NCBI RefSeq assembly: GCF_038025025.1
Contig: NW_027117343.1
Span: 372,001 to 436,000, forward strand
Source of the DNA: Phyllosticta citribraziliensis
Lineage: Eukaryota
Reading direction: 5' to 3'
Length of the DNA: 64,000 nt
The position numbers were made by a program, and so were the translations under genes. Positions within the stretch are counted from its first letter, which is position 1, and the number at the start of each line of letters is the position of its first letter. The notes beneath the pieces were generated by a model. That model was not told the origin of the DNA. It worked only from the letters and a program-made list of their open reading frames with translations, and made no database searches. Positions 27,868 through 60,860 of the stretch are shown here, piece after piece.

Positions 27868-28790
27868 GGCGGCGATGAGGGTGGACGACGAAGATGCGAT
27901 GGAGTGGATGCGCGCGAGGCAAGGTGGATGGGTAGATGGCGAGTTGGAGCTAGCTCGGAGGGTAGGGTAGGGTAGCGCTGGTGTGGTGGAGGCGGTTGGT
28001 TGGTTGGAGGTGGTGCTTGGGTGCTTGGTGCTTGGGTGCTTGGGCGGCCCGGTTCTGGACCTGTAAGAGGACGACGGAGAGCGAGCGGCATCTCGGCCTC
28101 GCATGGATGAAGAGAGACAGACGGTAAAGGGCGACAAGCAGACTCGACCGGCTCACTCTGCTCTACTCGACGGCAGCAAACTCGTCTGCACACGCACCGC
28201 TGGAACGAATAACTCTCGTTCAAGCCTCTGCATCCGACTCCCCCTCTTCCTCGTCTCCCACGCACGTCGCGCCGGCCTTGCCCCTGCCCTTGGCCGTGAC
28301 CGTGACCGTGACCCCAGTCCGTACCGCGACGCACAATACCGCCGCTCCCAACTCGTCCACCTCCTCGTCCTATCCTCGACCTCTCCTCGTCATCTCTCCT
28401 TTGCCAGCTCCCAGGTGCGCAATCCTATCCATCCGCCTCCCGCCCACCTGGCTCCTCTTCTCCCATCCCTCAGGTCGTCGCCTCTCCCTCCCGCCGAGCC
28501 CGACCAACTCGTTGCCGACCTCCCTCCGAGCGCGGCTCACGACCCTCTATCCCTCTCCCACGCCGGCGCGCGAGCTCCATCCCTCCGCTTGTCGCGCTTC
28601 CTGTCCATCCATACAGGGGCTTCGTCTTGATTGCGGCCTCGCCGGCCCTGCCGCCCATCCTCTGCCTCCCGGCCAGGGCTGCGACGACCCCATCCCCGCC
28701 TCCCTCTTCCTCTCCCCACGCCCCTTGGTTCGTCCTGAGGTGGCGCCTACGGGGCAGCTCCTCACAGATCGCCGTGTTGGCTAGATCCAC

Positions 28791-31700
28791 ATGGCAGACT
28801 ACGGCGCCCAGCAGGGGAGGGATTACGGTCGCCAACCCAACTACGGCCACACGTCGGATCACCAGCGAGATGCCGCCTTCTCCAACATTTTCGGGACTGC
28901 TCCACCCGGCAGGTCTCAGACAATGACCTCGCAGTCCTTCCAGCGCCCCGCCGACCGCGCTGCCACCATGTCATCCCAGGTCTCCGACGTGATGAACCGC
29001 ATGGGCCCCATGAGGCCGGCCCAGGCCAACGGCTACCACCCTCCCCGAAGGCCCGTCGAAGGTGCTCCCGTGCCTGGTCCACGCCATCCCCAGAACAACT
29101 ATCTTCCACAGCCCCTGCGACCGGACCGTCCGCCATACAACATGCCCCAACGCATGGATCCGAGAGCCCCGCCTCCGAATGGGTCCTACGGCAACAAGCC
29201 CGTCCCTCAGCGCTTTCCCAGCGGTCCTCCTGGCCCTGCCCTCAATTCCGATCCCTTTCGCTCGCAGTCCCTGGCCGCCGGCCCTCGTCCGCAAATGTAC
29301 AACCCACCAAGCAGTGGATACGTCAATCCTGCGCATACGTTTCGCCAACAGCCTTATATGAACAACGGAGCCGGCGCCCGTACCACGGCGCAGGGTAGGG
29401 TGGTTCCAGAAAGGGTCGACGAGCGCGCAATGTCCCTGACTTCGTTTGCTCGTGACCACGAGTACACTACGACCATGAGTGGTCGAGTCATTCCCAACAG
29501 GAGGAAAGAGCCCAGCGAGGCCAACGGTTCCCACCCCCCGGGCGTCCACATACCCACACCTTCTGCCGGTGCTCCACATTCGGCTCAGTACGCTGCCAGT
29601 CCTGGCAACAAGACGAGGAGCCCCAGCCAAGGCAGCTTCAGCACTCAGCGGACCATGTCAATGGCTTCGACAGTTTGCCCGCCCTCCGAAGCTGGCGAGC
29701 TCCGGCCGTCGACCTCACAAAAGTCAAAGCAAGCGTTGGCGACGGCGCGCGAGCGCCCTCTCGTATATCCTGCTCTGCTCTCCCGGGTCGCAGAAGTATT
29801 TCGAGACCGGATGATTCCGGGCGAAAAAGAAAAGGACGGCCTGGTCTACAAGAGCGCCTTTACGGGAGCGGAAGCGGTAGAGCTCATTGCTTACATCATC
29901 AGGACTTCGGACAGGAACCTCGCGCTCCTCTTGGGCCGGTCTCTGGATGCGCAAAAGTTCTTCCACGAAGTTACCTATGCCCACAGGTTACGAGACTCGC
30001 CTGCCGAGGTCTATCAGTTCCGCGAGACACTTTTGGAAGACTCGACCGAAGTCAACGGTGTTTTCACGCTCCTGACGGAATGTTACTCGCCGACATGCAC
30101 GCGCGACAAGCTGTGCTACTCCATTGCCTGCCCGAGAAGGTTGGAGCAGCAGGCGCGGCTGAACATGAAGCCAAACCCTGGTCTCAAGAGGGAGGAATCC
30201 AAGTCCAGTCTGCACGAAGACGACAACGACGAGGAAAAGAAGCTCTGGATCATGACCGTCTCCAAGGAAGTGGCCGACAGCATCTCGGAAAAGGAAAAGA
30301 AGCGACAAGAAGTCATTTCCGAACTCATGTACACGGAGCGCGACTTTGTCAAGGATTTGGAATACCTCCGCGATTTTTGGATGAAGCCTCTGCGCAATCC
30401 TGCCACCTCGCCCATTCCCGAGCACCGGCGCGAAAAGTTCATTCGTACAGTCTTTTCAAACTGCCAGGACGTCTACAAAGTCAACGCGCGCATGGCAGAG
30501 TCCCTCACTCGCAGACAGCAGATCGAGCCCGTCGTCAAGAACGTTGGAGACATTTTCCTCGAGTTCGTGCCCATGTTTGGGCCGTTTATCAAATATGGTG
30601 CAAATCAGCTCTTCGGCAAGTATGAATTCGAGCACGAGAAGAGGACAAACCCGGCATTTGCGAGATTCGTCGATGAGGTAGAGAGAATGAAGGAGTCGCG
30701 CAAGCTCGAGTTGAACGGTTACCTGACCAAGCCGACCACGAGATTGGCTCGTTATCCCCTGCTTCTAGAAAACATCTACAAGTACACCGCCGAGGACAAT
30801 CCGGATTTCAAGGATATCCCCAAGGCCACCACCCTGATTCGGGAGTTCTTGTCCAAGGTCAATGTGGAGTCCGGAAAGGCTGAAAATCACTTTAATCTGG
30901 TGCAGCTCAATAGGGACCTCAAATTCCGGCCGGGCGAATACGTCGATCTCAAACTGACCGAGGAGAACCGCCAACTGGTATTCAAGGGTGCGCTGAAAAA
31001 GAGTCCTACAGAAAACACGAGCGATATCCAGGCCTACCTGTTCGACCACGCGGTGCTGCTAGTCCGGATCAAGACGGTCAACAAAAAGGAAGAGATGAAG
31101 GTTTACAAGAAGCCGATTCCGTTGGAGCTGCTGGTCATTACCCAGATGGATGAGATTCTCCCAAAACAAGGTATTGCCAAAAGGCCCTCCTCCAGCTTGA
31201 TCCCCGGAGCCAACAAGACCTCTTTAAACACAGGTGCCAAGACCGAAAGCCAGAAACAAGCCGGATACCCCATCACGTTCAAACACCTGGGCAAGGGCGG
31301 CTACGAACTGACGCTCTACGCGTCGACCCAAATCTCCCAGGAAAAGTGGATGAAGCACATCCAGACCCAGCAAAAGACGCTCCGGGACCGCAGCAACATT
31401 TTCACCAAGGAGATTGTTTGCGAAGGCTTCTTCAACCAGTCCATCCGAGTCAATTGCTGCGTGCCGCTTGGTAAGTGTGGGCTGGGAAGTTTGTTGATGG
31501 TGATGCTAATTTGAAAAGACGGTGGCAGGAAATTGGCATACGGCACCGACTTTGGTGTCTACGTTGCTGACCGCAGGCCCAAGGATGCATCAGTCAAGCC
31601 TCGGCGTGTTCTTGACTGCAAGGCTGTCACTCAGATTGACGTGCTGGAGCAACATCAGATCCTGCTCGTCCTCTCTGATAAGACCATGTACTCGTATCCC

Positions 31701-32644
31701 CTCGAGGCTCTCGACCCAGAAGAAGGCCAAAACGCCGGTGCCAAGAGAGGCAGGAAGATTTGCCACGCCAACTTCTTCAAGGCTGGTGTCTGCGTCGGCC
31801 AACACTTGGTGTGTTGTGTCAAGACGTCAGCGCTTTCGACGACCATCAAGGTTTACGAACCCATGGAGAACATGGCCAAAAAGTCCAAGAAGTCTGGCTT
31901 CACCAGGATGCTTGCCGGCGGTCAAGATGTGCTCAAGCCCTACAAGGTATGTCGGCCGGTTTTAAGCCTCGGCAAGCCACTAATGTCGTTAGGAATTCTA
32001 CATTCCCACCGAATCTACCTCGATCCATTTCCTCCGCTCCAAGCTTTGTGTTGGCTGCGCCAAGGGTTTCGAGGTCGTCTCCCTCGAGACGCTCGAGACC
32101 CAATCTTTGCTCGACCAGGCCGATACTTCGCTCGACTTTGTGGCTCGTCGCGAAAACATCAAGCCGATCCACATCGAGCGTCTCCAGTCCGAATTCTTGC
32201 TCTGCTACACAGACTTTTCGTTCTTTGTCAACCGAAACGGCTGGCGAGCTCGTCCGGACTGGAAGATTACCTGGGAAGGCACGCCGCAGTCATTCGCCAT
32301 ATTCAACCCCTACATTCTCGCATTTGAGCCGAGCTTCATTGAGATTCGACACATGGAGACGGGCATGCTCGTGCACATCCTTACAGCTAAGAACATTCGG
32401 ATGCTGCATTCGTCGACGAGAGAGGTAAGTCTTTATTTGAATCCACATTTGCCTGCTCTAACACCTTCAGATTCTCTATGCGTACGAGGACGAGATGGGC
32501 GAGGATACGATTGCATCACTCGACTTTTGGAGTCGGCCGCAGAGTCCGCAACAACCCAAGCAGCTGCCCCCTGCACCCTCGGCGGCGGCGGCAGCAGTGC
32601 ACTCCCCCCCTCCGCAGATTCCTGCTCAGAGTTTCTCGCCGTAA
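28791..32644 (+). CDS. ROM2: Rho1 guanine nucleotide exchange factor (DEP, DH, PH, CNH domains)
   Basis: 907-aa first exon with DEP (AFTGAEAVELI), DH (KRQEVISELMYTERDFV, LTKPTTRLARYPLLL) and PH regions. CNH exons follow after introns near 31471, 31947 and 32424. Ends SLDFW...QSFSP*. Confidence 0.96.
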
Positions 32645-34369
32645 AAAGTGGAAAAAGAAGCCGTGCTTGCATTCACACCTTCTCGTCACACGCAAACAAC
32701 ACCTTTTTTTCCTTTTTTACGGTCTTGAAAATACCCTGCTTGTCTTGGCATCTGGTGCACTCTCGTCGTTGTTGCACTTCGGGGGAGCCTCTCTGCTTGG
32801 TTGTTGTACGACGTCTCCTCCAAAACCCCTCCCACCTTCTTCTTCTTCTTCTCGTCGTCTCTCTGAAGTTTCCTGTACCGTTCGTCCAGAACCAAAGCTC
32901 GTTGATAGATAATCTGGAAAGCAAGCGCCTGTTTGTCGGGTTTCGCCCCACTTTTTTCTCTCTTCCTCTCTCTCCCCCTCCCTTGTCTTGAGCGTCCTCT
33001 GCGTCCGTCATCATCTTCCGTCGTCGTCTGTGCTTTTCTCTCTCCCGTCCCTCTCCCCTTTTTTGTCGAGACTTGTACTCCCTCCGTACCATACCTCCGA
33101 CCAACAACTTACTCCTCTGCCAGCCAGCCAGCCAAGCCCGCCAGTCAGTCAGTCTGTCAGTCCAAATTCCAAAATCTTGATTGAGAGCGCTTTTCCGATT
33201 GTACTGTTTTGTGTCGACTGCGCGTCTCTTTGGCGTAGTCATGTCAGTGAACGTGCCAAACGCGACAGGCTGACCTACCCTACGTTCCCGTCTTCTCAGT
33301 GGCGCCTGCGCTTGCAAGTAGTCTTGCAGCTCTTCGCGATTGTGAGTAGTTTCGGGCACGCTGGGCTGCCTATCTTGCCTCCGCCGTCTCCGCGGTGCAA
33401 CGGTCGCTCTGCTTGCCGATGGGTCTGCACAGGCAGCTCAGCCCAGCCCAGCCCCCAAAGCTGTTCCAACACCCAACCTCCTCTTCTCGATTAGACACGG
33501 CCACATGCGATGCCCCGCGTCTATTTGTCACGTACTTATTTTTGCTCTTCTGCGCCAAAGGAGTGGGAGACGTGGGCGCTGAATGTAACGATATACTGCA
33601 CGCACGTTGATCGCTCTGTGGAGCTAGGTTGAGCGCTGCTGCGGGGTGAGAATGAGAGTGGGAAAGCACGGGTGGTAGGTCAGGTCGAATGTTCGCATGT
33701 TGCGATGCGGCGATGCAGCGTAGCTGAGTTTTGTATATACGGTACCAGACGGCTGGCTAGTAGGGGAAGGGCGAAATAAGAGGGGGGGGGGTGGGGGGGG
33801 AAGCGCTGAGGGAATCAGGGTTGATTGGGTTTTCGATCGTTTGTTGGAGATTGGAGCGACTGTTGCGGGGTTGACAATGAATTGAGCCCTTGGCCATGTG
33901 TGGAAAGAAAGGTTTGTTGATTATTTATCTAGGCACATAAGGTAGGCTGTTTAGGTGTATAGGGAGTCAAGCATGTGCTCGGATGTGCTCGGCGACCGAC
34001 CTCCAGCTGCACACATGTATGTAATCTCTGCCGTCAGATTCCTGGCGCAAGTTTGATCAACGGATTCAACGCATCTGCATCTTACGTGGTTTCTGCCGGA
34101 GCAAGTGAAAATGGGAAAACAGAGAGTTCTTTCGATGAGAAGAGTTGGATGTGTAGGTCGCAGACGGATGGACGGACGGGCGGGCGAACGACTCGGGGGA
34201 TACTTTTTCGCTCCGCGTGCCCACGGCTAGCATCCATGACGTCCTCCGCAAAGACCACCATTCATCCAGTCCATCGCACATCAACTCAACTCATCCACTG
34301 CGCCACCACCACAAACCCACTTCCACAACCCACAATTGCTTGCTTCCAATCCCCCGCCAAACCCAGCTC

Positions 34370-40167: not shown

Positions 40168-40678
40168 ACGTCGCCACTCTCGTGGTCCTCCACCGACTGT
40201 TGCTCTCCTTTTCGACTTCGTCGCGCTTGTCAAGTACTTTTGCCGGCGGACCTGGGGGCGATGGGCGCGACTCTTGGCTTACAACGGATTTTACTTGTGT
40301 TAGGGATGGAACGGAGTTTTCGGGCTGAGGTCTTGTGTTTCTGAGCGATAACCATGGTTTCGCAGTGGTGAAGGACCAACATCGAAATGACATGCTACAC
40401 TTTCCTTGATGCGCCTCTTTCAGTCTTTCCCAAGTGATGTTGTGTGGACTAACTGGAGCTAGCAACCATTCCTTCTAACCCACGAGGTCCCAAGTCACCA
40501 TTCCACTTTTGAAAGAGGGGTACTGACGATGCATCAGGGTCTCGGCCGACCACGCGCAGCCGAAGCTACCAACCCCTCTTCAGTCTGGTTCTCTAGTCCC
40601 ATCGTCTGCTACTAATAGCTGCCCGAATCACTGGCCAACCGCCTTCCAAACGAAGTCAACGACAGCATCCCTTCAACA

Positions 40679-41919
40679 ATGGAGCCTCCCCCACCCAGCC
40701 AACGCATCCTCATCTTCGGCGCCACGGGCAAGATTGGGACATACATTACATCAGCCATAGCCAACGCCTCGCCACCCTTTGCCCGAGTCGCCATATACAC
40801 GTCTGCCAACACCGTCGCGGCCAAAGCAGCGCACATTGAAGCGCTCAAGGCGCGCGGTGTCGACGTCGTGGTCGGCGAGTTGGATGACGACGACAAGATC
40901 AAGGAGACGTACCAAGGTGTGGCTTCCTCCCTCCCTCGTCTTCCTCTGCCCTGCTTACCTACACGCTTCCGCCTGCTCACACCTGTGCAGACTTCGACAC
41001 CATCATCTCCTGCCTCGGCCGCGCCATCCTCTCGCACCAAACACGCCTCATCCGCCTCGCCGCCCTCGCCTCGTCCCCAATCCGCCGCTTCTTCCCCTCG
41101 GAATACGGCACCGACGTGCTGCACCCCGTCACGCCGGACCCGCACGCCGAGCCGCCGCACCGCTACAAGCTGGAGGCGCGCGCGCTGCTGGAGCGTCTGG
41201 CGTCTGGCGAGACCGAGGGCGATGCGGTGGTGGTGGGCAAGGGGGAGGGAGAGAAAGGGGAGAAGGTGGGCAAGAGCCTGAGCTACACGTACATCGTGAC
41301 GGGCCCGTATGCCGAGTTCTACGTCGCGCCGACGGGCCAGCGCGGCGTCGAGGGCGGCGCCATGGCGTGGGACCGCGCGGGCGGCTTTGACGTCGTGAAC
41401 CGCCGCGCTACGCTGTTGACCAGACACGCCGACGGAGGCGAAGGCGAAGGCGGAGGCAGAGCGGAAGGTCAAGGCACCGACCCCATCGCCCTCACCACCA
41501 TGCCCGACACGGCGCACTTCGTCGTCTGCGCCCTGCGCCACCCACAGCAAACGCACAACCGCGCGTTGCGCTGCCACTCGTTCAACACCACTCCCCGCGC
41601 TATCCTGTCGGCTTTTGAGGCGCAGACGAGCGGGCCAGGGACGTGGGCCGTCACGTACCTGCACCTCGACGAGCTGCACGAGCGCGAGCGCGCGGCGTAT
41701 GCGCGCGGCGATGCCGAGAAGGGCTTGTTCAGCGTGCGGCGCATTTGGACGATGGGGGGGAGTGTGTATGAGGGGTGGGAGGAGGGGAGGGGGTGGGATG
41801 ATGGTGAGGGTGAGGGGTGGGTGGATAGGGAGGGGTGGACGGCGGGGACGCTGGAGGAGGTTGTTAGGGGGGAGGTTGAGCGGCAGATGCGCGAGGAGCG
41901 GGAGGGTGAGGAGGTGTAG
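40679..41919 (+). CDS. NmrA-like / isoflavone reductase family NAD(P)-binding protein
   Basis: RILIFGATGKIGTYI Rossmann motif; after one intron, FDTIISCLG...IRRFFPSEYGTD, YTYIVTGPYAEF and IALTTMPDTAHFVV. Confidence 0.88.
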
Positions 41920-42242: not shown

Positions 42243-43507
42243 CTACTTGGTCCCCTTGCCACTCGACTTGGCCGCCTTGCCCGACCTGGCCCGGCTGCTC
42301 GCCGTCGCCGCCTCGTAGGGACGCGCCGCCCGCTTGGTTTTGCTCGGCGGAGGCGGCGCAGCATCCGGATCGGCGTCGTCTGCTTTGCGTTTGCGCGAGG
42401 AGCCGGACGGTCCAGCTGTCGCGGGACCACTCGCTGACGCAGCAGTAGCAGTCGGTTTGGCACTTTGGATTTTGGCGGGCGCGTTTTCAGATCCGCCTTG
42501 GGCAGACGATGGGGTAGGGGGAAGCTCTTGGGTTGCATTTTGCGCCGCGGCGTGGTCAGTCGTCTCGTTGGCGGACGCGTCTTGACCGTTCTTGGTGGTT
42601 GAAGCCTTTTGCTTCGATACCCACTCGGCAATCTCGTGGCCTTCTTCGTCGTCGTCGTCTGCCTGCTCAAACATGGCGTCGGCCATTTCGCCCGCAATGT
42701 CGTCGGCCTCTTCGCCTCCGTTGAGCATGCGCAGGGCGTAATTGATGAGGGTGCTCTGGTCGAGACCGGCGGGCGCCGCTCCAGCTGCTGAAAGGTTTTC
42801 TTGCAGCGCTCGCATCAGGGCCTGCGGGTCGAGGCCGTTACCAGCGACGAGACCCTCCAAGTCGTGTCCTAGACCTCCGCCAGCGCCTCCGCCGGCTTCC
42901 GTGCTGCGTGACGGTTTGGACTCATCTTCCGAGTCTGTGGCCCATTCCTCGTCGGCGGCGTCCGTTTTGGGAGCCGCGTCAGTGACAAATCGCGTTTGCC
43001 AGTCTCGCAACAACGCGAAAGATTCTTGGGGCTCTTCTAGTGGCAGGTTTAGACCCAGCACTTTCTCCATGCGCTGGCTGGCGGGAATCCATTTTACAGG
43101 AGGGGCGTCCAGTGACTTGACGGCGATACGGGCCGCGGCGTCTTGGGCAACCTTTCTTTTCTTTTGCGGCGAGCCACCCTGCGCCGTCTTCTTCCTCTTG
43201 TTTCCTATAGCGCTCGGCTGCCTAATCTTTGGCTTTCCTTGTATGTCGTTCCAGCCGTCCGAATTGTATTCAATGTCGATCCAGTACTCGTACGGGTCGG
43301 AGCCGGCGCCGTAGTCGTCAAGTTGGTCATCTAGGTATGGAGGGTCCGGGACAGCGCCTTCTGCCAAATCATCCTACCCAATGTCAGCATCGTCAGGGAA
43401 GGGTTTGGCGGAACCCTCACGGCAAGCTGGTCTTCTTCGGCAATGTAGAGCCACGCGTCGTCGTCGAAGAATTCCAAATCGTCCGAATCGTAGCCGTAAT
43501 CCGACAT
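42243..43507 (-). CDS. Hypothetical acidic protein (2 exons), divergent from mccA
   Basis: MSDYGYDSDDLEFFDDDAWLYIAEEDQLA|DDLAEGAVPDPP...YEYWIDIEYNSDGW...; 374-codon second exon with basic NLS-like clusters (KRKK, KKRK, RKRK). Confidence 0.75.
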
Positions 43508-44058
43508 GGTGGCGAGCTCTGCAAGCGGCGGCGGGTTGTGCGACTGGGCGGATGCTCTGGACGAATGGAACGCAGGAAGAGGCGCCTCAAATCAGGGCAT
43601 GGCGTGCAGACGAATGGGTACGACGAGGATGGAAATGTGACCAAAAGCAACGGTGCCTTTGTCGAGAGTGTCGTTGGACAAGCAGACAGCTGGAGGTGGA
43701 GGAGGTCAGATCAGGGATCCAGGTTTGCTCTGTAGGGATTGGTTGGGCGGCGAGGTGCGACGACGACGGGGAGCTTTGCATGGCCTGCGCTCATGGTGAC
43801 AACGACCTGACGCAGCAGCCTCGATGCTCCTTTCCCAGCATCCAAATTGACCGAGTGGGCAAAATCTCAGCTTGGCTACTGTCGACCGGACGGCGTCGAC
43901 GCGTGCGGTGCCTGACTCGGCCACGAACGCATCCCCCACGTCGGCTATCCTCGGCCCATGCCGCCCGCTTCCATATCCGGGGAAGCTCTGAACCCCATCT
44001 GAGCGTCCACCTCCAGCCCTTGATTCAACTCTCCCCATGGACTCGTTGGTGTTGCAAC

Positions 44059-46241
44059 ATGTACAATCTTCGAAATTATAGCCTTCGAGCTGCGGCTCTT
44101 GCTCGGATTCGTCCCCCAACAGCAGCCCGGCGATTTGAAACCCTGTCCAAGCCTTTGACGTCCATCCTCATTGCAAACAGAGGAGAAATAGCCATCCGCG
44201 TGGGCCGCACGGCCTCCAAGTATGGCATTCGGACTACCACCATTTACACGGACCCGGATGCACAATCTCAGCATGCTGCCAGTTCCCCTTGGGCCATAAA
44301 TCTCGGTCAACCAAGCGCCTACCTGGACGGAGACCGCATCATTCAAGTTGCCAAAGAACATGGCTGCCAGGGCGTCCACCCAGGCTATGGTTTCCTCTCT
44401 GAAAACCCCCATTTCGCCAAAAAGTGCACCCAAGCTGGACTGGTCTTTATTGGTCCTCCCTGGGAAGCAATCGACGCCATGGGCAGCAAGAGCAGAAGCA
44501 AGGAAATCATGACTGCCGCCGGTGTGCCTTGTATTCCTGGCTACCACGGCGGGAACCAGGACCCCGATTTTCTGCAAAAAGAGGCTGGAAAGATTGGGTA
44601 TCCTGTCTTGCTAAAGGCCGTCAAGGGGGGAGGTGGCAAGGGCATGCGCATCGTGCAAACGCCCGCCGAATTCATGGATCAGCTCAAATCAGCCAAGTCG
44701 GAGGCCACAAACTCTTTCGGCGACGATGTCATGCTTGTGGAAAAGTACATTACAAAGCCCCGACATATCGAAGTTCAAGTGTTTGCCGACAGGCATGGAA
44801 ACTGTGTTGCCTTGGGCGAGCGGGATTGCAGCATCCAGAGAAGACACCAAAAGATTCTGGAAGAGTCGCCCGCCCCCAACCTTGACGAGTCTGTTCGACA
44901 AGATCTCTGGGGAAAGGCGAGGGCAGCAGCCTTGGCCGTCAATTACGAGGGAGCGGGCACCGTGGAGTTCATCTTTGACAACGACACCAACGAGTTCTTC
45001 TTCATGGAAATGAATACGCGGCTCCAAGTCGAGCATCCCGTGTCCGAAATGGTCACTGGTCAAGATTTGGTGCAATGGCAGCTACATATAGCAGGTGGTG
45101 GAAAGCTTCCGATGACGCAAGACCAAATCCACGAGCAAATCAAGCTCCGCGGCCACGCCATCGAAGCCAGAATCTACGCAGAAAATCCCGACCTCAACTT
45201 TATCCCTGATTCGGGGAAGCTTGTCCACCTCAAGACTCCAGAGCCATCACCACAAGTCCGAATCGACGCGGGATTCGTCGAAGGCGACGAAGTGTCGTCA
45301 CACTACGACCCCATGATTGCGAAGCTCATCATCCACGGCCCCGACCGACTTGCCGCTCTCAATAAGATGCGCATGGCGCTCGAGGAATACGAAGTTGCCG
45401 GACCGGTGACCAATATCGAATTCATCAAGCGGCTTGCCGTCAGCCCTGCCTTTGTGGCTGGTGATGTCGAGACGGGCTATATTCAAAAACACCACGATGA
45501 ACTTTTTGAAAGACTGCCAACACCTCCCGAAGTGTACGCGCAGGCAGCAATTGCAGTGCTCATTCAGGAGGCAGAATCTCTAAAGGCACCGCACGCGATT
45601 GGCTTCCCTAGTACAACGCTCGGTTTCACACAAAGCTACTCTGCTCGCGAGGTCCACCTGCTCGAAAAGGACCCCTCGGCCGCAACGACTGTGCAGAATG
45701 CAGACAACACGACAACTGCCGTAACACTGCAGCAGAGGAGTCCGGATACTTTCAGCGCCACCATCGGCGATGTGTCGTTCTCGTCAATCAAAGCGCAATT
45801 CGACCCCGCGACCTCCATCCTCACATCCTACTACCCGCACACGCGGCTGACGACGCAATTCGTCCGGACCGGCTCGCTGCTCACCTTGTTCCAGCACGGC
45901 AAGCAATACCGGCTCGAGCTGCCCATGCCCAAGTGGGCCGAAAAGGCGCTCGGCGTTAAGGAGGCCAAGAACAGCGTCGTGGCGCCCATGCCGTGCAAGG
46001 TCCTCCGCGTAGAGGTGCAGGAGGGGGATAGAGTCGAGATGGGCCAGGCACTCGTCGTCATTGAGAGTATGAAAATGGAGACGGTCATCAAGAGTCCGGT
46101 GGAGGGTGTCGTCAAGAAGATTGTGCATGGGCAAGGGGCAAGTCGTGTTTCCCTCCCCGTTTGTTTGTTTTGCTGACACGGTGACAGGATCTTTGCAAAG
46201 CAGGCACTGCGCTTGTCGAGTTTGAAGAGGCGGCCGAGTAA
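44059..46241 (+). CDS. mccA: Methylcrotonoyl-CoA carboxylase biotin-containing alpha subunit
   Basis: ILIANRGEIA, HPGYGFLSEN, KAVKGGGGKGMRIV, ERDCSIQRRHQK, FMEMNTRLQVEHPV and biotinylation motif ESMKME. Mitochondrial-type presequence. Terminal GC-AG intron at 46138-46187. Confidence 0.93.
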
Positions 46242-53045: not shown

Positions 53046-54149
53046 CTAGTTCTTGCCCTCTAGAAGCTTCGCCATTCCCACCTTGACGAGTGCCGAACTG
53101 GCTTCTTCCATGATCTGAAGGATATCGCGAAAGCCACGGGGCCAGAAGACCTCGCGCTTCAACTTGGCTGCCTTCTTGACTTCCTCATCAACCTTCTTCA
53201 ACGCAACTAGCTCTTTGTCAAGCATTGCCAACTTCTTCCCAGCAGTCTTGAAGGGAACAACGAGCTTCTCGACGTGCGCCTTCTCTTCGCTGATCCTCTC
53301 GCGAAGCACTTCGATGCACTTGCCTTCTTTGCGCGCTCTTCGGATCATATTATTGAGCTTAGTTTGCTGTCAGTGTCTATCCGTCTACATGTCATCAGGA
53401 GCTCACCTCAACCACCGTTCCGGGGTTATTAATTGGGTCGTGATCGCGACACTCTGGCTCAAACATGCGAAAATTCTGGGGACGTGTTAGCATGGACAAC
53501 ATGAGGCTTTCATGTGTGACAAACCTCTGGAAGGGGAATGTTTGTTTGGTGTCCCCCGAAAGCTTCCTGCGGCTTTGGATGGCCAAGTTGGATTGGGAGA
53601 TGAACGCCGGTGTTTGCAATATTCTCATTGATCTTGTCGAATCCGGCCATGAGCTCTTTGTATTGTTCAGCCAGTGAGTCCTCATTGGTTGCGACCCTCC
53701 TCCTGTCCCAACGATTTCCAACCATGGCAAGGCAAACCTGCCAGTGCTCCTTCTCAGCAACACGAGATCCACTGATAAGAGCTCTTAGCATGCCCTTAAG
53801 AGTCTCCACCTTTTTGCCAGAGTTGCACAACTCTGTATAGTCAGGTCGATCCGGGTTGGGATAGTAGCAAGACTTCTTGTCAATCTCCTTCACTCTTGAA
53901 ATGGCATCAGCGTATTTGAGCCCAGCCAATTTTGCCAGTCTCTCATATCTGAGACGATGCCATTCAACTTCTAGCTTCTCCTCCTCACGCTCTTCTCTGG
54001 CGCAGTCGACTTCATCCCGCGTAGGTACCGATTGGGTGTTCAGATCCTCGGTGGCGTCGGTGAGAGCCTCAGATTTGATCAATGCCTGTTCTCTGTTTGA
54101 AAGTCAGCCAGATGATTGAGGTCATGTCCCGAGCGTTGACATACGCCAT
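53046..54149 (-). CDS. Two-domain (A+B) coiled-coil orphan protein (4 exons)
   Basis: ATGGC|AGAACAG micro first exon and a long exon 2. 49-nt introns at 53524-53476 and 53406-53358 keep the frame into MIRRARKE...LLEGKN*. Both halves have paralogs in this window. Confidence 0.7.
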
Positions 54150-54780
54150 GATTGGTCGTGAGATGGCTTGGGCATATTGCGTATCCTTGCTCCGTCGGTG
54201 AAATGACGTGTAATGACGCTCGAGGCCGCGAGCACTTCAGGCTTCAGATCAGTTGATGTCTTGTAAAGACGTAGATCATGGGTGTAGTGGGGTGAAAAGA
54301 AGTAGAAAGTTTGGGAGAGAGCTTTGGAGAAAGCTGCGGCAAGAGCTACTCCAGCACCCAGTACCGCCTGTGAATCTGGCTTCGTCAGCGTTCACACCGA
54401 CGGCCGACTAATCCATGTTTTTTGTGCGCTCGAGTGTGGCATGCCGCCGAAATTTGACACTCACCTCAAATCCACGAGCCCTCTGCCACCCAGATCAAGC
54501 TCCCGACTTCTAGTTCTGCTCTTGCCTCACCTTTTCTCTCCCCATCCTCTGCCTCCACTCTGCACTCACCTTTTCTGGCAACTCATACCACCACACATTG
54601 GCTGTCTGCTTCTGCGACCCCACAGCTTCGCCAACCCTCCTCACCTCGACCCTTCGGATTCATACCCCGAAGTCACGTCTCTTCCTCCGCTCAGGCTTAC
54701 TTCTCTGTCCCCAGCGCCAAGGCTTGCGTTTCGCCTACAAGAGTTCAGATCATCTTGCATCTGCGCCCCTCTTGCCTTCA

Positions 54781-55244
54781 ATGGAAATCGACGACAGGAG
54801 TATCAGCAGCGACAGTGAAATCCCCAGAACGGACACAAAGGAGACTGTCGCTACTCTTGCCCGCGACCAGATCAATGCTGTCGCGACTCCAGAAGAAGAA
54901 CAAGCGGAAATCGAAGCGGCCAAGGTAGGTGCCAACATTGTCAACTTCATCAAGTGATTGAGTGCTTACAAGTCTCAAATAACCAGAAACGCCTCCCAGC
55001 GCTCGAAGAAGAGGTGAAGAAATTGGAAGATGAGCTTCATCAGATCAAAAACGACAGCTCCTTTCCCAGCGAAGCCGAGCTTGCGAGCATGATCGAGACC
55101 ACTGCCAAAATGGAGCTGGGAATCAAGATGGCGTCTACAATCAAGGAATGGACGGAGCACTTCGGCAGCCAAACTGGTGCAGTCCAGAGCTTCTATGTCG
55201 ATCTCCTCGAACTGATTATGGAGCAGTTCGAGAACAACAATTGA
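54781..55244 (+). CDS. Small coiled-coil orphan protein C (2 exons)
   Basis: MEIDDRSISSDSE...EIEAAK|KRLPALEEEVKKLEDELHQIK...DLLELIMEQFENNN*, with an in-phase GTAGGT..CAG intron. Confidence 0.6.
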
Positions 55245-56578
55245 AAAGGCAGGGGGGAGATAAAAGGCAGATATGGTCGCGGTACTGGCATGTGAACCGC
55301 AGCAGAAGAGGTCACATACAACGACGAGAGAATCAGCAGGGAGTTGCATCGGGGCAACTACCTACAACTTTTGATTACGAATGCCGGCAAGAGCTTCCTA
55401 ACACTCGCTTGAAAGGGTGAGACCGTCCTCAGCTAGGGAGATTGAAGAACGGCTGTTCAGCATGGTACCGAGACAAGACTCTGCAGCCATTATCCAACGG
55501 CAGACTCAGAGGGCCACAGGTGGATGCGATGACGGTCGACGGTCAACGGTCAATGGAGGACGGCGGGTCGACTTCGAAAAGTTTGCTTGAATTACTGCTT
55601 CTTCGTGGAATTGGGGACTTGCGTGGGTCTTCAGAGTGCGTGGAGATGGTATCATTGTCAGTCCAGGAGCAAGAAAGCTGCCTCCCCTTCAATGTACTGA
55701 GGACTGACATGCACCTGGGTTGGTATCTGGACCGCACTGGAGGCCAGCTGCTTGGATCAAGAGTTTTCGGATTTCCCTTTGGTTGGGTCGACGAGGATTG
55801 ATTTGATTTCTGGATGGCATGGCATTGGCATTGGGTTTCTCGGGCACCCTTTCTTCAACGGCCTCGATCTTCATCGGCGGCGAACTAAAAGCGAGTGCAT
55901 AGTCAGACAATGCAAAAGGTTGACAGATGCGAAGACATGGGTCACTCACAGCAAGGAGAGGAAGACGGATGGGAGCCCGTCGCACATACATCTTCCAAGA
56001 TGCCCAGACAAGCTTACATGTATAGCTGGCGCAAAGTGCTGCCGGCAGAAGACGGGTCTCGACGCTCAATACGGAGCTTGGACGAGTTTGAGCTGGGTGT
56101 GAAGACTACGAGAAGCGCACTGTGACATGGAATGGTCCTAGCAGGCGGTTAAACAACCAGATTTAGGACCAAGTTCTCGTGCGCAGAAGATCAGAAGCAG
56201 CTCCCATTCATTGACAGTGATCCTGAAGTGGAACGGTTGTTTGTGTTCCACATGCCTCACACGTATCAATGTCTCCACTCCGGTTCGCCAGAGAGGCGAT
56301 GAGGATATGAAGGACATACTGAGTTCCGTCGTCACCACGCCGGCTCCCGCGGGCGGGACCTGCTGGTATGGCACGCGCCGCTGGCTCAGCGCCGGCTGCA
56401 AACAAGATGTCCTTCTTCTTTGTTCCTTGGGCAACTGCACAAGAACAGGTAGCCAGGCATGCCATGTTTGGACCGCGGGACTCGTTCAAGAGAAGGCGAT
56501 GCACCGCCAGCCTGGTAACCGCGCTGGTCTAACGGTTGGCTCCTTGAGCCAGCAGCTTTGCGCCTTTGTCCTTGACCG

Positions 56579-56976
56579 TCATATCCTCAGGCCATCGGCT
56601 CTGCTCAACTTCCAGCTCTTTGGCAATATTGTATGCGCCTTGAAAGCCAGCACCAAACTTTGATAGAAGGTCGAGAAAGAGATCTCAACCCAGGCTGGGG
56701 GGCTGTGACGGTCTTTCTCGACGCCTTTGATTTTGGTCTCAAGCTCCTTGTATCTGTGCATTTTGTTTGGGGCAGGTCTGCTTCGCCGAGTTGTTTGTCA
56801 AACCGATCAAGCATTCGGCGCGTAGAGGTTACGGGTTTGCAGAGCTAGTTTACGGGCGCCCTGTCACAAGAAGTCAGAGCATGCAAAGCCAGGCACGTGT
56901 GGTGCAGCACAAACAGTAGGCCATTTGTTTGCTTTGAGTTGCCATCGATGACTTGGTTGGGCCCACGAGCGGACAT
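56579..56976 (-). pseudogene. Possible decayed coiled-coil gene (C-like)
   Basis: Protein-like fragments (LDRFDKQLGEADL; HRYKELETKIKGVEKDRH) in different frames, with an intron-like GTTTGT..CTGAC..CAG and in-frame stops. Confidence 0.3.
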
Positions 56977-56985
56977 GGCTGGTAG

Positions 56986-57008
56986 TTTTCTTTTTAGTTT
57001 TTTTAGTT

Positions 57009-57039
<31 letters not shown>

Positions 57040-57043
57040 GGGG
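56986..57043. repeat. Adjacent poly-T and poly-G homopolymer tracts
   Basis: Interrupted T-runs followed directly by about 25 G. Confidence 0.85.
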
Positions 57044-57597
57044 AGGCTGATTGAGCAACTAGTCGGTAGGGTTTTGATGAGGAGTGCTGAAGCTGGGTTC
57101 ACGCAGCGAAAACCGCGTCAAAGTTTGATTTTTCGGCGGCTTCCGGAGTTGTGGTGTTTAGAGTCCGCAGTGGATTGGCCACTGTGGGCGCTGGCATGTC
57201 GACCTCGCGGCCTCGCGGGCGGGCGCTGTTTTTCTGTCGTCGCGTTGGCGAGCCATCTGGATACCGCCGTTCCCTCCAAGGTCTTCCACCCTCTTGCACC
57301 CACCTCTGAACCAACCACTCCAAGCTTTCTGGCGACTGCTACGTGTTGCCATCCACGCAGGTACGCGTTCCTGGGCAAGCCTCGAACGATGTCTACTAAC
57401 CGTCAATGAGCAGCGACCTCTCTACAGGCTTCAACCCAGGGCATCCTCCAGCAACCGCCTCTGAACCACCTCAACCCAAGCTTCCAGGCAAAGAGGATCA
57501 TCTCTGTCGCAATCGACATCCACGCATGTACGTCACCATCGCCAAGCAAGCTCCGAACGACATCCACTGACTATCCATTGAAGCGACAGTCGGCAGT

Positions 57598-58113
57598 ATG
57601 GACGCTGCACAGCAGAAGCTCGCCGAGCTGCGCAAGAGAAAGTGCCAAGTCAGGGAAAAGATCACCGCCGCCAAAGCCGAGATGATCAAGCACCAGGAGC
57701 TTATTGCGAAGCTGGAGAAGGATGCCAACGAGAAGGAAGCTGAAGTCAAGAACTTGGAGGAAGCGAACGACAAGACCAAGAACGAGGCCTACTACCAGAA
57801 CCCTGACTACCTCGACTACGCCATCTTGTGTCACGCGAAGACCAACGTTGATATGTTGAAGGCCTGGTGTGAAGAGCTCAGCGAGGAGTACGATGGCAAG
57901 ACCCGCAAGCAGCAGTACTGGAAGAGCCACATTGCCAGCATCATCAAGATTCGGGAGGTGGATACTGACGCCGAGGGCAACACTCCAAAAGAACTCCACC
58001 AGCGCATTCTTCAGGAGCTCGACCAGTTGGAGAAGAACATGGCGGAAGATGGAGTCAGTCTGCCTGTGCGCCTTGGATATCCGAAGCCCGAGGACGTCAT
58101 CAGCAAGCCGTAA
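57598..58113 (+). CDS. Coiled-coil orphan protein, domain A only (5' exons uncertain, may begin near 57406)
   Basis: 171-aa ORF with strong coding bias. YYQNPDYLDYAILC and GVSLPVRLGYPKPE match exon 2 of 53046-54149. Confidence 0.75.
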   Translation: MDAAQQKLAELRKRKCQVREKITAAKAEMIKHQELIAKLEKDANEKEAEVKNLEEANDKTKNEAYYQNPDYLDYAILCHAKTNVDMLKAWCEELSEEYDGKTRKQQYWKSHIASIIKIREVDTDAEGNTPKELHQRILQELDQLEKNMAEDGVSLPVRLGYPKPEDVISKP

Positions 58114-58871
58114 GGATGAGGTCAACCACGACTCTCGCGATAGCTCCCGAGGTGTATTGGACGGATTACTAGAGGCGGACTTGGCAAGACTCGTCTTTTT
58201 CCCTTTTCAGAATGGATAACATCGGAAGGCTAGATAGAACGGACCTCGCTTGCAGGTCAATCAGTCTGCCGAATCAATGATGAACAAGCCACTCACGGCG
58301 TTACACTTAGGGTGCCTGAAAATATGCAAACAAATCCATCACCGTGATGATAAAACGCAGGTACCGTACCTGGTACACGTGGTGAGGGTCGTAATGTCGT
58401 GGTCTCGGATTAGGGTCGGGCCGGGCAGCAGCACGGTCGGGTCGCGACGCGATGACGGACAACCAACTGTCACCCACCCACAGGGTCCAGTTTCCTAGCC
58501 TTCTACTCGCCATCATACAACTGCTTCAAGCAACTCATTAGTATAGATGCAATGCCTTCAGTTGTCCCTCATAAGCCTTTCATTTTCGTAGTGCCTATAC
58601 TGCTTGCACCCGACCACCTCCCGACAACCTTTCCGCTCGTGAGCAAGATTGTTGTTTGCCGGTCATGTCCACACAACGATTGAGGCCTCGGTGCCCGCCA
58701 TCCATACGTTCCCATGGCATCATGATGAGGATGTAGCTAAGGAACTTGAGTCCATTCTAGTCGCACCGTCGCCCGTCGATCCAGATTCTCGCACCCGATG
58801 GTACTCCGCCATGATCCTGCTCCTGTGAATCTTGACAAGCCGCATGCACCGCGTCTCTCCTCAACGTCCAC

Positions 58872-59764
58872 CTAGCGCTCGTTGAGCTTCTCGTCAGCCT
58901 TGCGGATGTCAACGTCGATTGGGCCGAAGCTTCCGGTACGATTATAAAACGCCATGCGCTGGTCGTGCTGCTCTTTCAAGAGGTCGTCGATGCTGGAGTG
59001 CATGTCAAAGTCAACTGGGCCGAAGCTTCCGGTACGGCCGTAAAAGGCCATGAGCTGGTCGTGCTGCTCTTTCAAGATGTCGGCGACGCGGGAGTGCATG
59101 TCAACATCCATTGAACTGAAGCTTCCGGGACGATCGTAAAAGGCCATGCCCTGATCATCCTGTTCTTTCATGATATCGCCGTCGTAGGGGTTCATCGTGG
59201 ATTGAGGAACCACCTGAGCCTTGGACTTGGACATGCGAAGCTTCTTCCTGCCATCAGCACCTTCAACGGTTGGCCTTCTGAGTCTTTTGCGGCCCTTGCT
59301 GTTCTCGGCGAAGGTTGTTTCATTCGGTGTGCCCGGCTGTGTTGGCTTCGGGTCGTCGGAGGGCTTTTGGTCTTCTCCAAATATCGCCTTGTAGATGCCG
59401 TGAACCACCGGATAGAGCTTATTCATGCGCCAGTCCTTGCCTGTCTTCTCCACCCTGGATCCGAAATACGGGGTGAGAGGGAGTTCATCCAAGATTTCGG
59501 GGCGCTCTTTGCCCCCTTCTACCAGGTTGAAGACCCTCGAACGGTACCCGAAGTCTCCCGATCTGCCAAGCCGGCCATACCAAGCCTCTTTGCGTGTTGT
59601 CTCGTCTCTGGCTATGAGCACGCGCCGGGAGCCTTGACAGTATTCATTGCCTGATGCCGCATGGACGGAGATGAGCGGATCGTTTGCCTGGTCTGATTAG
59701 CCGGAGGGAAGATCCGAGTGATATGGTAAACTGGAGCGTTGCGTACCTTGGAACTGGATGCCAT
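58872..59764 (-). CDS. Orphan protein with three C-terminal 32-aa tandem repeats (2 exons)
   Basis: MASSSK|ANDPLISVHAASG... (intron GTACGC..CTAAT..CAG). Basic NLS-like KGRKRLRR/GRKKLR. Repeats D[IL][ML]KEQ.DQ.MAFY.R.GSF...D.D. Confidence 0.7.
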
Positions 59765-60270
59765 GGCAAGGGCCCGTCAACGTTGGAGACTTTGACGATG
59801 GTATGATTGTAGAGGCCGATGAAGAAGAGGCGCAGGCGTAGGGGTCGAGAAGCGAGAGTGTTGAAATGCTATCAACGCTCTCGTGCTGAAGTCTGGGGAG
59901 AGATGCAGAGGTCAAAGTAGCGCGATCCCGTGGGCGTCTTGGGAAGAGAAGCCACGGGGATGACGCTGGAGGTCCAGAATCACGCAGCGACCATGAGATG
60001 ATCGGAGGGGTGGGCGTCTTTGTTGTGGTGTTGGTGAGAAAAGCGGAGTGACTTGCAGGCGGTTGTATTTTTCCACATCCCACACAGAGCGGTTGGCTTT
60101 TTCTTTTTTTTTTGGTGAAGGTGCGGCAGGTACCTTCGGTTTTTTCGAACGCTTGCCGGACTCTCCCAACTCTTTGGTCGCCCCCCATCTCGCCAAACCC
60201 GCGCTCCCCTTCACGCGCGCATCCTCCCCATCCAACATCGCCGACCATCACATCCCTCAAAGAGTCAACC

Positions 60271-60860
60271 ATGCCGCTCACGAAACCGGTCCTGATCCTT
60301 GACATCGACTCTGACTCAAGCAACTCAGAGGTTTTTCCACCATGCCTTCCGCACTGCCGTTGGCTCAGCTTCTAACGACCCCCGATGTAGGATGACAACA
60401 AGTCACCTCCACAGGCTTTGAGCCCCGCTGAGCAGCAGCCTCTTAAAGTTGTGCGCAACCAGATTCGCCAGGTTGAAGCCGAAGTAGGATCAAACTAAAC
60501 CCCCCACAAACATCTCATCTTGAGATCTGACTGACACGTGCCAAGGTCATGGCTGAGGAGTCTGAGCTGCAGCAGATCATCAAGGAACTTGAGGCCCAGG
60601 AAGGAAAAATCAGCGAGCTCCAGACCCGCAACGCAGAGATCTCGCAACGCCACATCCGTCTTGCGAAGGAGAACAAGCGTTGGAAGAAGGTCAAGAAGGT
60701 GGTCAGCAGCGTCGCCTCGGCCAAGCGGGAGTACTTTGACGGCAACACGCTTGCAGAGCTCCTCGGCATTATGGAGGATGCGAACAAGGCGTTGGACGTG
60801 CTTCGCATGGCTCATGTCCTGAAGAATTCTGCTAAGAGGTCGAAGGCTTGTGGAGAATGA
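60271..60860 (+). CDS. Coiled-coil orphan protein, domain B only (3 exons)
   Basis: MPLTKPVLILDIDSDSSNSE|DDNKSPP...IRQVEAE|VMAEESEL...AKREYFDGNTLAELLGIMEDANKALDVLRMAHVL. Introns at 60331-60390 and 60484-60545. Matches the C-terminus of 53046-54149. Confidence 0.72.

Follow-up and report, generated by a model that had tools for sequence, protein, structure and literature searches.

A 64,000-nt window of the genome of Phyllosticta citribraziliensis, a citrus-leaf fungus (the whole stretch of DNA analysed, with positions counted from its first letter) carries the same two protein modules, A and B, in two forms: as a single minus-strand gene, A'B', and as separate plus-strand genes, A and B, with a third gene, C, between them on the other strand. 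The pattern is a real but ordinary fusion/split arrangement in an orphan family; the new element is gene C, which is linked to A in P. capitalensis as well. The coexistence of fused and split forms hints that the two parts work together. The features concerned are as follows:

53046..54149, minus strand: fused gene A'B', four exons (54149-54145, 54092-53525, 53475-53407, 53357-53046), 317 aa
53061..53198, minus strand: B' C-terminal motif, P0003 residues 268-313, KREvF...iLqIMEeAssAL...MAkLL
53476..53524, minus strand: A'B' intron 2, 49 nt, GTTTGT..CAG
53555..53878, minus strand: A' core, motifs YYpNPDrpDYteLC ... GVhLPiqLGhPKP, placed by BLASTP against A, tblastn coordinates and conserved columns
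54781..55244, plus strand: gene D in our model, exons 54781-54924 and 54987-55244, 133 aa, net charge -17
57598..58113, plus strand: gene A, single exon, 171 aa, 100% contained in P0001 and P0013
58872..59764, minus strand: gene C in our model, exons 59764-59747 and 59687-58872, 277 aa
58906..59170, minus strand: tandem repeat at the C-terminal end of C, 2.8 copies of a 96-nt (32-aa) unit
60271..60860, plus strand: gene B, exons 60271-60330, 60391-60483 and 60546-60860, 155 aa, the same model in the earlier note and here

The spliced exons of A'B' translate exactly to P0003, an annotated 317-aa hypothetical protein of P. citribraziliensis (100% identity), which bears out the coordinates and splice sites that an earlier note on this DNA had given for the minus-strand gene. 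All three introns (52, 49 and 49 nt) are GT..AG with a CTRAY branch site 15-16 nt upstream of the acceptor, and the 69-nt middle exon, flanked by the two 49-nt introns, is in frame. P0012, from a second strain, follows the A'B' model with an alternative acceptor 9 nt upstream, and P. citrichinensis P0004 is likewise a fused model, of 233 aa, so that three independent annotations agree with the fused gene proposed in that note. P0004 is 84 residues shorter, the conserved GVxLPxxLGxPKP motif being among those absent; the P. citrichinensis copy may be decaying, or the P0004 model may be wrong. The canonical in-frame introns, the identity of P0003 and P0012 and the fused form in the second species, these proteins being annotation models, are compatible with A'B' being one transcript and one protein. 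If intron 53524-53476 were kept in, translation would reach a stop codon at 53512-53510 and give a predicted 195-aa A'-only product; the note's arithmetic, which placed this stop at 53510, is correct.

On the split side, P0001 and P0013 consist of gene A plus differing N-terminal extensions (263 and 315 aa), for which the sequence upstream of A has a non-coding look (codon score -0.04), and the tail of A stops in P. citribraziliensis where its sister species continues reading. The predicted gene B is an open model whose two introns (60 and 62 nt) are GT..AG, and its product has an acidic, Ser-rich N-terminus, a coiled coil and the C-terminal B motif at 60684-60821. Gene C is convergent with A and divergent from B, with which it has a common divergent promoter region of ~500 bp; its repeat has 82% matches and a score of 362 in Tandem Repeats Finder. 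Gene D, a small coiled-coil gene divergent from A'B', shows no similarity to A, B or C and scores at background against B and B'. Codon scores in the proposed frames are +0.52 per codon for A, +0.37 for B, +0.31 for B', +0.22 for C and +0.15 for A', where the reference, a RhoGEF gene, scores +0.30 and all other frames fall lower; exon 2 of D scores +0.33, and GC3 is 0.78 in A and 0.54 in A'. Together with intact sister-species orthologues (83% identical in A, 92% across A' and 86% across B'), these scores support A, B, A', B' and C as real coding genes.

The paralogy of the two copies is clear at the protein level. A' and A match by BLASTP at 56.6 bits (E 4e-15, identity 32/112) and are each other's sole significant tblastn match within the 64-kb window (E 2.7e-12); their Smith-Waterman score of 156 compares with 35.9+/-6.1 for shuffled sequences (z 19.7) and was reached by 0 of 2000 shuffles, so the A'-A alignment that the note had reported is significant. 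The B'-B match is weaker, yet real. BLASTP between the B' and B exons gives E 2e-4 across 32 aa, B against full-length P0003 gives E 1e-5 (19/46 identical, at the P0003 C-terminus), and tblastn within the window gives 3.8e-4 one way and 0.07 the other. The B'-B score of 82 was likewise equalled by none of 2000 plain shuffles (34.5+/-6.1, z 7.8), 2000 shuffles preserving heptad register (z 7.5) or 2000 shuffles of 7-residue blocks (z 6.1). This signal is confined to the final ~45-46 residues, which alone give z 10.3; the coiled-coil stretch before the motif shows no significant likeness between B' and B (z -0.1, 1038/2000 shuffles as high). The view that B' resembles B beyond coiled-coil bias holds for the last ~46 residues. 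Cross controls were flat (A'-B z 1.6, B'-A z 0.5), and other coiled coils of the locus reached 28-39 with either B or B', where the B'-B pair scores 82. By tblastx the A and B matches are collinear between the two copies, whereas blastn finds no DNA similarity between them; protein identity is ~29% for A and ~40% across the short B motif. Taken with the BLASTP, shuffle and control results, this collinearity confirms the fused-versus-split paralogy first claimed from the sequence, and the separate A and B proteins match non-overlapping parts of the composite A'B', the pattern on which domain-fusion arguments are built.

The A/B family is restricted to Phyllosticta and is without described relatives. 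No Pfam family reached its gathering cut-off, or even E up to 1, with A, A'B', the B exon, C or D, the best scores lying far under the cut-offs (LIP-1, 18.3 vs 34.1 bits; GrpE, 11.8 vs 25.8 bits), and P0003 and P0011 likewise gave no Pfam family. A profile search with the A domain across 1,835,955,588 representative proteins (1.84 billion) returned five hits, four from Phyllosticta and one tandem-repeat artefact, and found the domain in three Phyllosticta species only; word-index searches gave 2 matches among 44 candidates and 2 among 221. Neither type of search found an A homologue in further Phyllosticta species. No relative of the family turned up in Pfam, PDB or Atlas, in keeping with its earlier description as undescribed. 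The A-core motifs do not vary between the three species or between the two paralogue groups.

The description of the locus as a two-component system captures the A-B pair and is incomplete, as gene C stands between the two, and its linkage to A recurs in another species. In P. capitalensis P0006, a 391-aa protein, the N-terminal half is homologous to the first ~110 aa of C (BLASTP E 5e-11, 30/114 identical) and the C-terminal half is A-like (A match E 1e-18). In P. capitalensis C lies directly upstream of A and is fused to it in three of four annotations, and unfused forms of C (P0008, P0011) and A (P0010) occur there too; the C-A fusion may have arisen through annotation joining two genes in tandem. 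Since C adjoins A in this species too, we regard the split copy as an A-C-B cluster.

The proteins are predicted to be soluble and all-helical: in A, A'B', B, C and D no 19-residue Kyte-Doolittle mean exceeds +0.75, where the usual membrane threshold is about 1.6, and charged residues make up 31-37%. The AF2 model of A (mean pLDDT 71.4) comprises a long helix (2-67) and a three-helix bundle (69-150), followed by a tail with the conserved GVsLPvRLGyPKP, and the B module is a coiled coil with a 45-residue C-terminal helix motif. Foldseek returned no match to the A model at E <= 0.001. Residues 66-152 superpose on generic antiparallel three-helix bundles, which implies no functional family; the best-scoring are the designed bundle 9rgv_A (82 residues aligned at rmsd 3.3, Z 8.4) and 7k3h_B (84 residues at rmsd 3.5, Z 8.4), with Z values in the chance range for helical models. 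The model of the fused protein is poor (mean pLDDT 50.4, about 30 in the linker 175-229), so packing of B' on A' in cis is conjectural.

For the pair in trans, complex prediction gave a score of 0.48, graded 'weak support' with no interface reported, against 0.00 for the best of three controls; by the tool's calibration this lies in a range where passes mislead more often than not, barring a guess likely beforehand. Contacts agreed in at least 69% between runs, and neither partner had a pLDDT below 60. Among solved complexes 51 of 78 attained the mark, against 2 of 108 mismatched pairs; for eukaryotes the figures were 39 of 65 solved and 2 of 126 unrelated pairs, and for neighbouring genes drawn blind 7 of 44. 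At scores of 0.60 or under, however, those attaining it were only 5 of the 78 and every one of the 4 mismatches (out of 180) to pass. The proposal that A and B act together is thus weakly supported, by the domain-fusion argument and by this score.

Our best explanation, which we hold with slightly better than even confidence as a whole, is that an old local duplication in a Phyllosticta-only helical family left two diverged copies ~3.4 kb apart in opposite orientation. In the split copy, A and B are separate same-strand genes with C between them on the other strand; in the other, A' and B' are joined as a 317-aa protein through a disordered linker of ~55 residues. We infer that A and B could form one helical complex, in trans from the split copy and in cis from the fused copy, with the long helices pairing and the B motif docking onto the A bundle; such a complex might serve as an intracellular scaffold or adaptor, possibly with C. 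The arrangement of A beside C is probably older, because it is common to P. capitalensis, and fused A'B' would be a derived, faster-evolving paralogue. In the unrooted, long-branched tree the A' branch is the longest (stem 2.19 + 0.58 vs about 0 for A), and the lower GC3 of A' likewise fits faster evolution; the direction, fusion or fission, is drawn from protein models and one outgroup species.

Several readings of the gene structures compete with this explanation. One takes the fusion for an artefact of annotation, with A' and B' as adjacent minus-strand genes that mirror A and B and no fused form; it is unlikely. Only ~150 nt separate the stop of the A' ORF (53512-53510) from the B' exon, which starts at 53357, too short a gap for a terminator plus a promoter; moreover, the in-frame 69-nt exon sits between two GT..AG introns with branch sites at -15/-16, identical junctions were chosen in two strains, and the fused form was also chosen in a second species. 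Against these points stand the origin of P0003, P0012 and P0004 as pipeline predictions, an internal Met in the translation of the last A'B' exon, and the unreliable look of neighbouring models, with P0001 and P0013 extending A differently and C and A annotated jointly in some P. capitalensis strains, apart in others. We consider it extremely improbable that split A and B are still one gene without any fission, C being nested on the opposite strand within a ~2.2-kb intron. A and B do share strand and order with A'B', and a donor-like GTAAGG at 58110 overlaps the A stop codon, but this donor leaves 512 nt of coding sequence (phase 2) and B exons 2 and 3 start in phase 0, so that splicing A to either would break the conserved frame of B. 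In addition, B carries an ATG of its own and, upstream, a pair of short coding exons with canonical introns, the A orthologues P0002 and P0010 stop at or just past the same motif, and 2-kb introns are very rare in filamentous ascomycetes. Decay offers another account, in which A'B', or else the entire cluster, is a functionless remnant whose duplicates drift under relaxed constraint; the weak codon bias of A' and its longest branch, the 84 residues missing from the P. citrichinensis model, the tail of A that stops early relative to the sister species and the lack of an A homologue among search matches from other Phyllosticta species all point this way. We judge it quite unlikely, given frames and splice sites that are intact in two strains and largely intact in a second species, similarity between paralogues retained in protein though lost in DNA, invariant A-core motifs and strong codon bias in A and B.

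The earlier note had also drawn an analogy to allorecognition or poison-antidote loci, and a het-like or meiotic-drive system, with fused and split forms or full-length and intron-retained isoforms as antagonists, would share with het loci and the wtf and Spok drivers the feature of linked, lineage-restricted genes, here paralogous orphans. The idea of two products from one gene is familiar from wtf drivers, and a second, intron-retained product of A'B' could exist on paper; A' evolves fast relative to A, and the weakly supported A-B contact (0.48) is compatible with antagonists. Unlike those systems, the locus is without their domains or membrane segments: at E up to 1, neither A, A'B' and the B exon nor C and D yielded a HET, HeLo, NACHT, gasdermin, WTF or other Pfam family, such families were absent in 148 of the 157 window ORFs of at least 120 aa (Pfam, E up to 1e-5), and none of the five proteins has a membrane-like segment. 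Known het loci have very divergent alleles, whereas P0003 and P0012, from two P. citribraziliensis strains, are identical at 317/317 aligned residues, the A sequence is identical within P0001 and P0013, and between P0006 and P0007, from two P. capitalensis strains, only 2 residues in 391 differ; with two strains per species compared, this near-identity is a weak test of divergent alleles. The window also holds single copies only by tblastn, with no multi-copy expansion. The analogy thus found no backing in domains, membrane segments or strain differences, and we regard such a role as very improbable.

The preferred reading, a duplicated family with one fused copy, has parallels among fusion genes. 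Domain-fusion ('Rosetta stone') pairs serve to infer functional links (PMC3155505; see also PMC529437), and A and B likewise match parts of the composite A'B' in the same order, hinting at interaction. Such pairs are usually orthologues across genomes with known activities, whereas those described here are paralogues in one genome, a few kb apart, from an orphan family, with a third gene between the split components. Gene fusion and fission also appear as a eukaryotic source of new genes, in folate-pathway fission patterns (PMC4224340) and in fusion genes of Oryza (PMC9199173). At this locus, unlike in those cases, the A/B modules are non-enzymatic and fusion is no more than the probable direction; as in them, a local rearrangement altered gene number for the same set of modules.

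The pattern at this locus, in which A and B are encoded once by a fused minus-strand gene (A'B') and once by separate plus-strand genes, in a genus-restricted orphan family and with a third gene linked, is real and cleanly demonstrable. It involves the following features:

Predicted features of the locus
53046-54149, minus strand, fused paralogue A'B'
54781-55244, plus strand, divergent from A'B', gene D (two exons, 133 aa, net charge -17, coiled coil)
57598-58113, plus strand, gene A
59764-59747 joined to 59687-58872, minus strand, gene C (predicted model, 277 aa)
58906-59170, minus strand, tandem repeat at the C-terminal end of C (2.8 copies of a 96-nt unit)
60271-60860, plus strand, gene B

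The minus-strand gene model put forward in the earlier note proved exact to the base, its exons (54149-54145, 54092-53525, 53475-53407 and 53357-53046) giving P0003, the 317-aa annotated P. citribraziliensis protein that was returned at 100% identity in the protein search, whereas an acceptor 9 nt upstream yields P0012, the 320-aa form of a second P. citribraziliensis strain. The introns (52, 49 and 49 nt) have GT..AG ends and a branch-like CTRAY at -15/-16. The arithmetic behind the suggested A-only isoform is also correct: retention of the intron 53524-53476 places a stop at 53512-53510 and leaves a 195-aa product. The protein search likewise matched gene A at 100% identity to an annotated P. 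citribraziliensis protein (P0001).

The similarity of A' to A is real (BLASTP E 4e-15, 32 of 112 residues identical) and lies 19.7 SD above 2000 composition-matched shuffles. That of B' to B is real and weaker than A'-A: comparison of the exons gave E 2e-4, and B matched the extreme C-terminus both of the whole of P0003 (E 1e-5, 19 of 46 residues identical) and of its P. citrichinensis orthologue P0004 (E 2e-5). As had been argued from shared non-heptad residues, the B'-B match goes beyond coiled-coil bias, with z 7.5 against shuffles preserving the heptad register (0 of 2000 as high) and z 6.1 against shuffles of 7-residue blocks; the last ~45 residues alone gave z 10.3 and the N-terminal coiled parts alone z -0.1. 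The cross pairs A'-B and B'-A scored at background, as did three further coiled-coil sequences from the locus. When B' and B were searched across the 64-kb window by tblastn, each found the other at E 3.8e-4 in one direction and 0.07 in the other, the remaining matches being no better than E 5. Because the tblastx matches of A and B are collinear and inverted, and blastn between the two copies found no DNA similarity, we conclude that the duplication is old and conserved only at the protein level. Weak tblastn matches of A' at 11862-12661 (E 0.53 and 3.5) were attributed to chance, the ORFs there looking non-coding.

The fusion might be an artefact of annotation, and the neighbouring models are plainly unreliable, A carrying N-terminal extensions that differ between two strains and look non-coding. 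However, the A' stop lies only ~150 nt from the B' exon, and the short exon in the middle keeps the frame, with canonical introns on either side; we consider an artefact unlikely. A reading that joins A and B into a single gene, with C inside one of its introns, is scarcely credible, as a donor at the end of A would have phase 2 and both later B exons begin in phase 0, so that B would be read out of frame if spliced to A. Decay of the fused copy is suggested by the weak codon bias of A'B' and by a P. citrichinensis model without 84 residues, a conserved motif among them, but the frames are intact and the core motifs invariant across species. The codon signal of the proposed frames is lowest for A' (+0.15, GC3 0.54) and highest for A (+0.52, GC3 0.78), and their codon-usage scores are comparable to that of a housekeeping gene in the same window.

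With A'B' taken as a genuine fused gene, the fused and split pattern behind the candidate two-component system of the earlier note holds, but a third gene is linked, and A-C-B cluster is a better description of the split copy. The 2.2-kb gap between A and B holds C on the minus strand, convergent with A and with its start ~500 bp from that of B; no C paralogue was found elsewhere in the window (best E 0.19). In P. capitalensis, the 391-aa protein P0006 is C-like in its N-terminal half (E 5e-11) and A-like in its C-terminal half (E 1e-18). C and A are joined in three of the four NCBI strain annotations of this species (P0006, P0007 and P0009) and C is alone in one (P0008), whereas ORF calls made without splicing yield the two separately, as P0011 for C and P0010 for A. 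These joined and separate forms make C and A tandem neighbours there, and C-A adjacency is common to distant members of Phyllosticta whether or not the P. capitalensis fusion is real. The repeat unit of C encodes 32 aa (consensus D-x-D-MHS..D.LKEQHDQ.MAFY.R.GSFGP); in P. capitalensis, the C protein lacks the repeat and carries instead a low-complexity tail rich in Lys, Asp and Glu.

The divergent neighbour of A'B' differs from that of the split copy, being the small acidic coiled-coil gene D, which has no resemblance to A, B or C. Since the accession numbers of the fused gene and A are consecutive, the deposited record may lack an annotation for D. The promoter regions 54150-54780, 57100-57597 and 59765-60270 share words slightly above shuffles, including one common 12-mer; these words were not counted as evidence.

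None of A, A'B', B, C and D approached the cut-off of any Pfam family, the weak rows (GrpE, LIP-1, CCDC93 and others) all lying far below theirs, and the ESM Atlas returned no usable match for P0003 or C. PDB sequence matches (best E 0.059 for the A profile and 0.096, to GrpE, for B) were taken as coiled-coil noise. A search of 1.84 billion representative proteins with the A-domain profile, using no word index, returned five: P. citrichinensis A (P0002), the fused P0003 and P0004, P. capitalensis P0006 and P0005, a 1207-aa tandem-repeat protein dismissed as an artefact in which a 29-residue stretch of the profile matched 17 times. The A-domain family is thus restricted, among predicted proteins, to Phyllosticta. 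Fused forms of greater length were absent from 1184 candidates. The only species whose A-domain proteins came up in the protein databases were P. citribraziliensis, P. citrichinensis and P. capitalensis; the P. citricarpa group was absent from the matches, which may reflect loss, missing annotation or the limits of the search. P. citribraziliensis is described as a Dothideomycete citrus endophyte, in a genus said there to include endophytes of citrus as well as the pathogen behind citrus black spot (PMC9073689). The literature searched yielded no mention of the locus tags and accession numbers of these loci.

The left part of the window (1-46200, the first ~46 kb) holds ordinary conserved genes:

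Genes identified in the Pfam scan
4030-4815, BTB gene
7143-8195, TALE homeobox gene
21444-22999, AMP-binding enzyme gene
28785-32988, DEP-RhoGEF-PH-CNH gene
40619-41278, NmrA-like gene
43315-46173, biotin carboxylase gene

From ~47 kb to the window end, no Pfam match at E <= 1e-5 was found among the scanned ORFs of at least 120 aa. The scan covered 147 of the 157 window ORFs of at least 120 aa plus one shorter ORF, and the four main ORFs discussed here were scanned separately from this set.

The earlier note had likened the locus to fungal allorecognition or poison-antidote systems. This analogy draws on linkage and orphan status and nothing further, and is not supported: the Pfam scans found no domains of that kind, there are no membrane segments, and the proteins are identical in two P. 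citribraziliensis strains and differ at 2 of 391 residues between two P. capitalensis strains. We regard such a locus as very improbable. A, B, A'B', C and D contain no hydrophobic segment and about one third of their residues are charged, which argues that they are soluble intracellular proteins, neither secreted effectors nor membrane toxins. It is just as doubtful, and would be very surprising, that A, B and C constitute an undescribed genus-specific three-part intracellular module in which A'B' or an A'-only isoform acts as antagonist or decoy of A+B, as a new helical self/non-self or poison-antidote system.

Association of A with B is what the domain-fusion principle predicts (PMC3155505). 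The predicted complex of A (171 aa) with the portion of B encoded by its last exon (105 aa) scored 0.48 against 0.00 for the best control, graded 'weak support' by the tool, with at least 69% contact agreement between runs and partner pLDDT of at least 60. The tool's mark was reached by 51 of 78 solved complexes, 2 of 108 mismatches and 7 of 44 blind neighbouring gene pairs; at scores <=0.60, only 5 of those 78 solved complexes pass, together with all 4 passing mismatches (of 180). Given this score and calibration, we put predicted binding of A to B at about an even chance. In the AF2 model of A (mean pLDDT 71.4), a long helix at the N-terminus (2-67) leads into three more (69-150); the model of the fused protein is all-helical and too poor for fold searching (pLDDT 50.4, with ~30 for the linker at 175-229). 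In Foldseek, none of the 171 PDB matches with E <= 10 reached E <= 0.001, and a wide structure search retrieved only generic three-helix bundles or single helices (best Z 8.4, rmsd 3.3, 82 aligned). In our working model, A and B would form a helical heteromer through pairing of long helices, the B motif would dock on the A bundle, and the fused paralogue would form the same heteromer in cis via a flexible linker.

As to the direction of the event, P. capitalensis A matches A (68.9 bits) slightly more closely than A' (47.0 bits), and in an unrooted five-sequence tree with long branches the A' stem is longest by far and A branches very close to the central node. With the shared C-A adjacency added, these sequence comparisons favor A'B' as the derived, fast-evolving paralogue.

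Should A and B bind, a single genome would specify one interaction both in cis and in trans, making the locus a compact natural test case from a protein family without any annotation; A, B and C would then also provide a first handle on a gene cluster specific to Phyllosticta. For now, the locus serves chiefly as a clean case of fusion/fission among orphan paralogues, and its analysis also corrects several gene models; new biology is not established, and the more exciting analogies for the locus have no support.

The annotated N-terminal extensions of A (56142-57597) differ by strain, with 263 aa in P0001 and 315 aa in P0013, and have a non-coding-like codon score of -0.04. The orthologues P0002 and P0010 begin at the Met of 57598, which makes both extensions probable annotation errors. 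At 58108-58150, A ends at a TAA where the P. citrichinensis orthologue has Q and runs 11 residues further, and a second in-frame stop (TGA) follows where that orthologue has R. The fused P. citrichinensis protein P0004 (233 aa) jumps from ...IANTG to KLVV..., the skipped 84 residues including the linker as well as the conserved GVxLPxxLGxPKP motif; the gene may be damaged in that species, or else the model skips a difficult stretch. At 56983-57043, ~550 bp upstream of A, 25 consecutive G residues come after a short T-rich tandem repeat.
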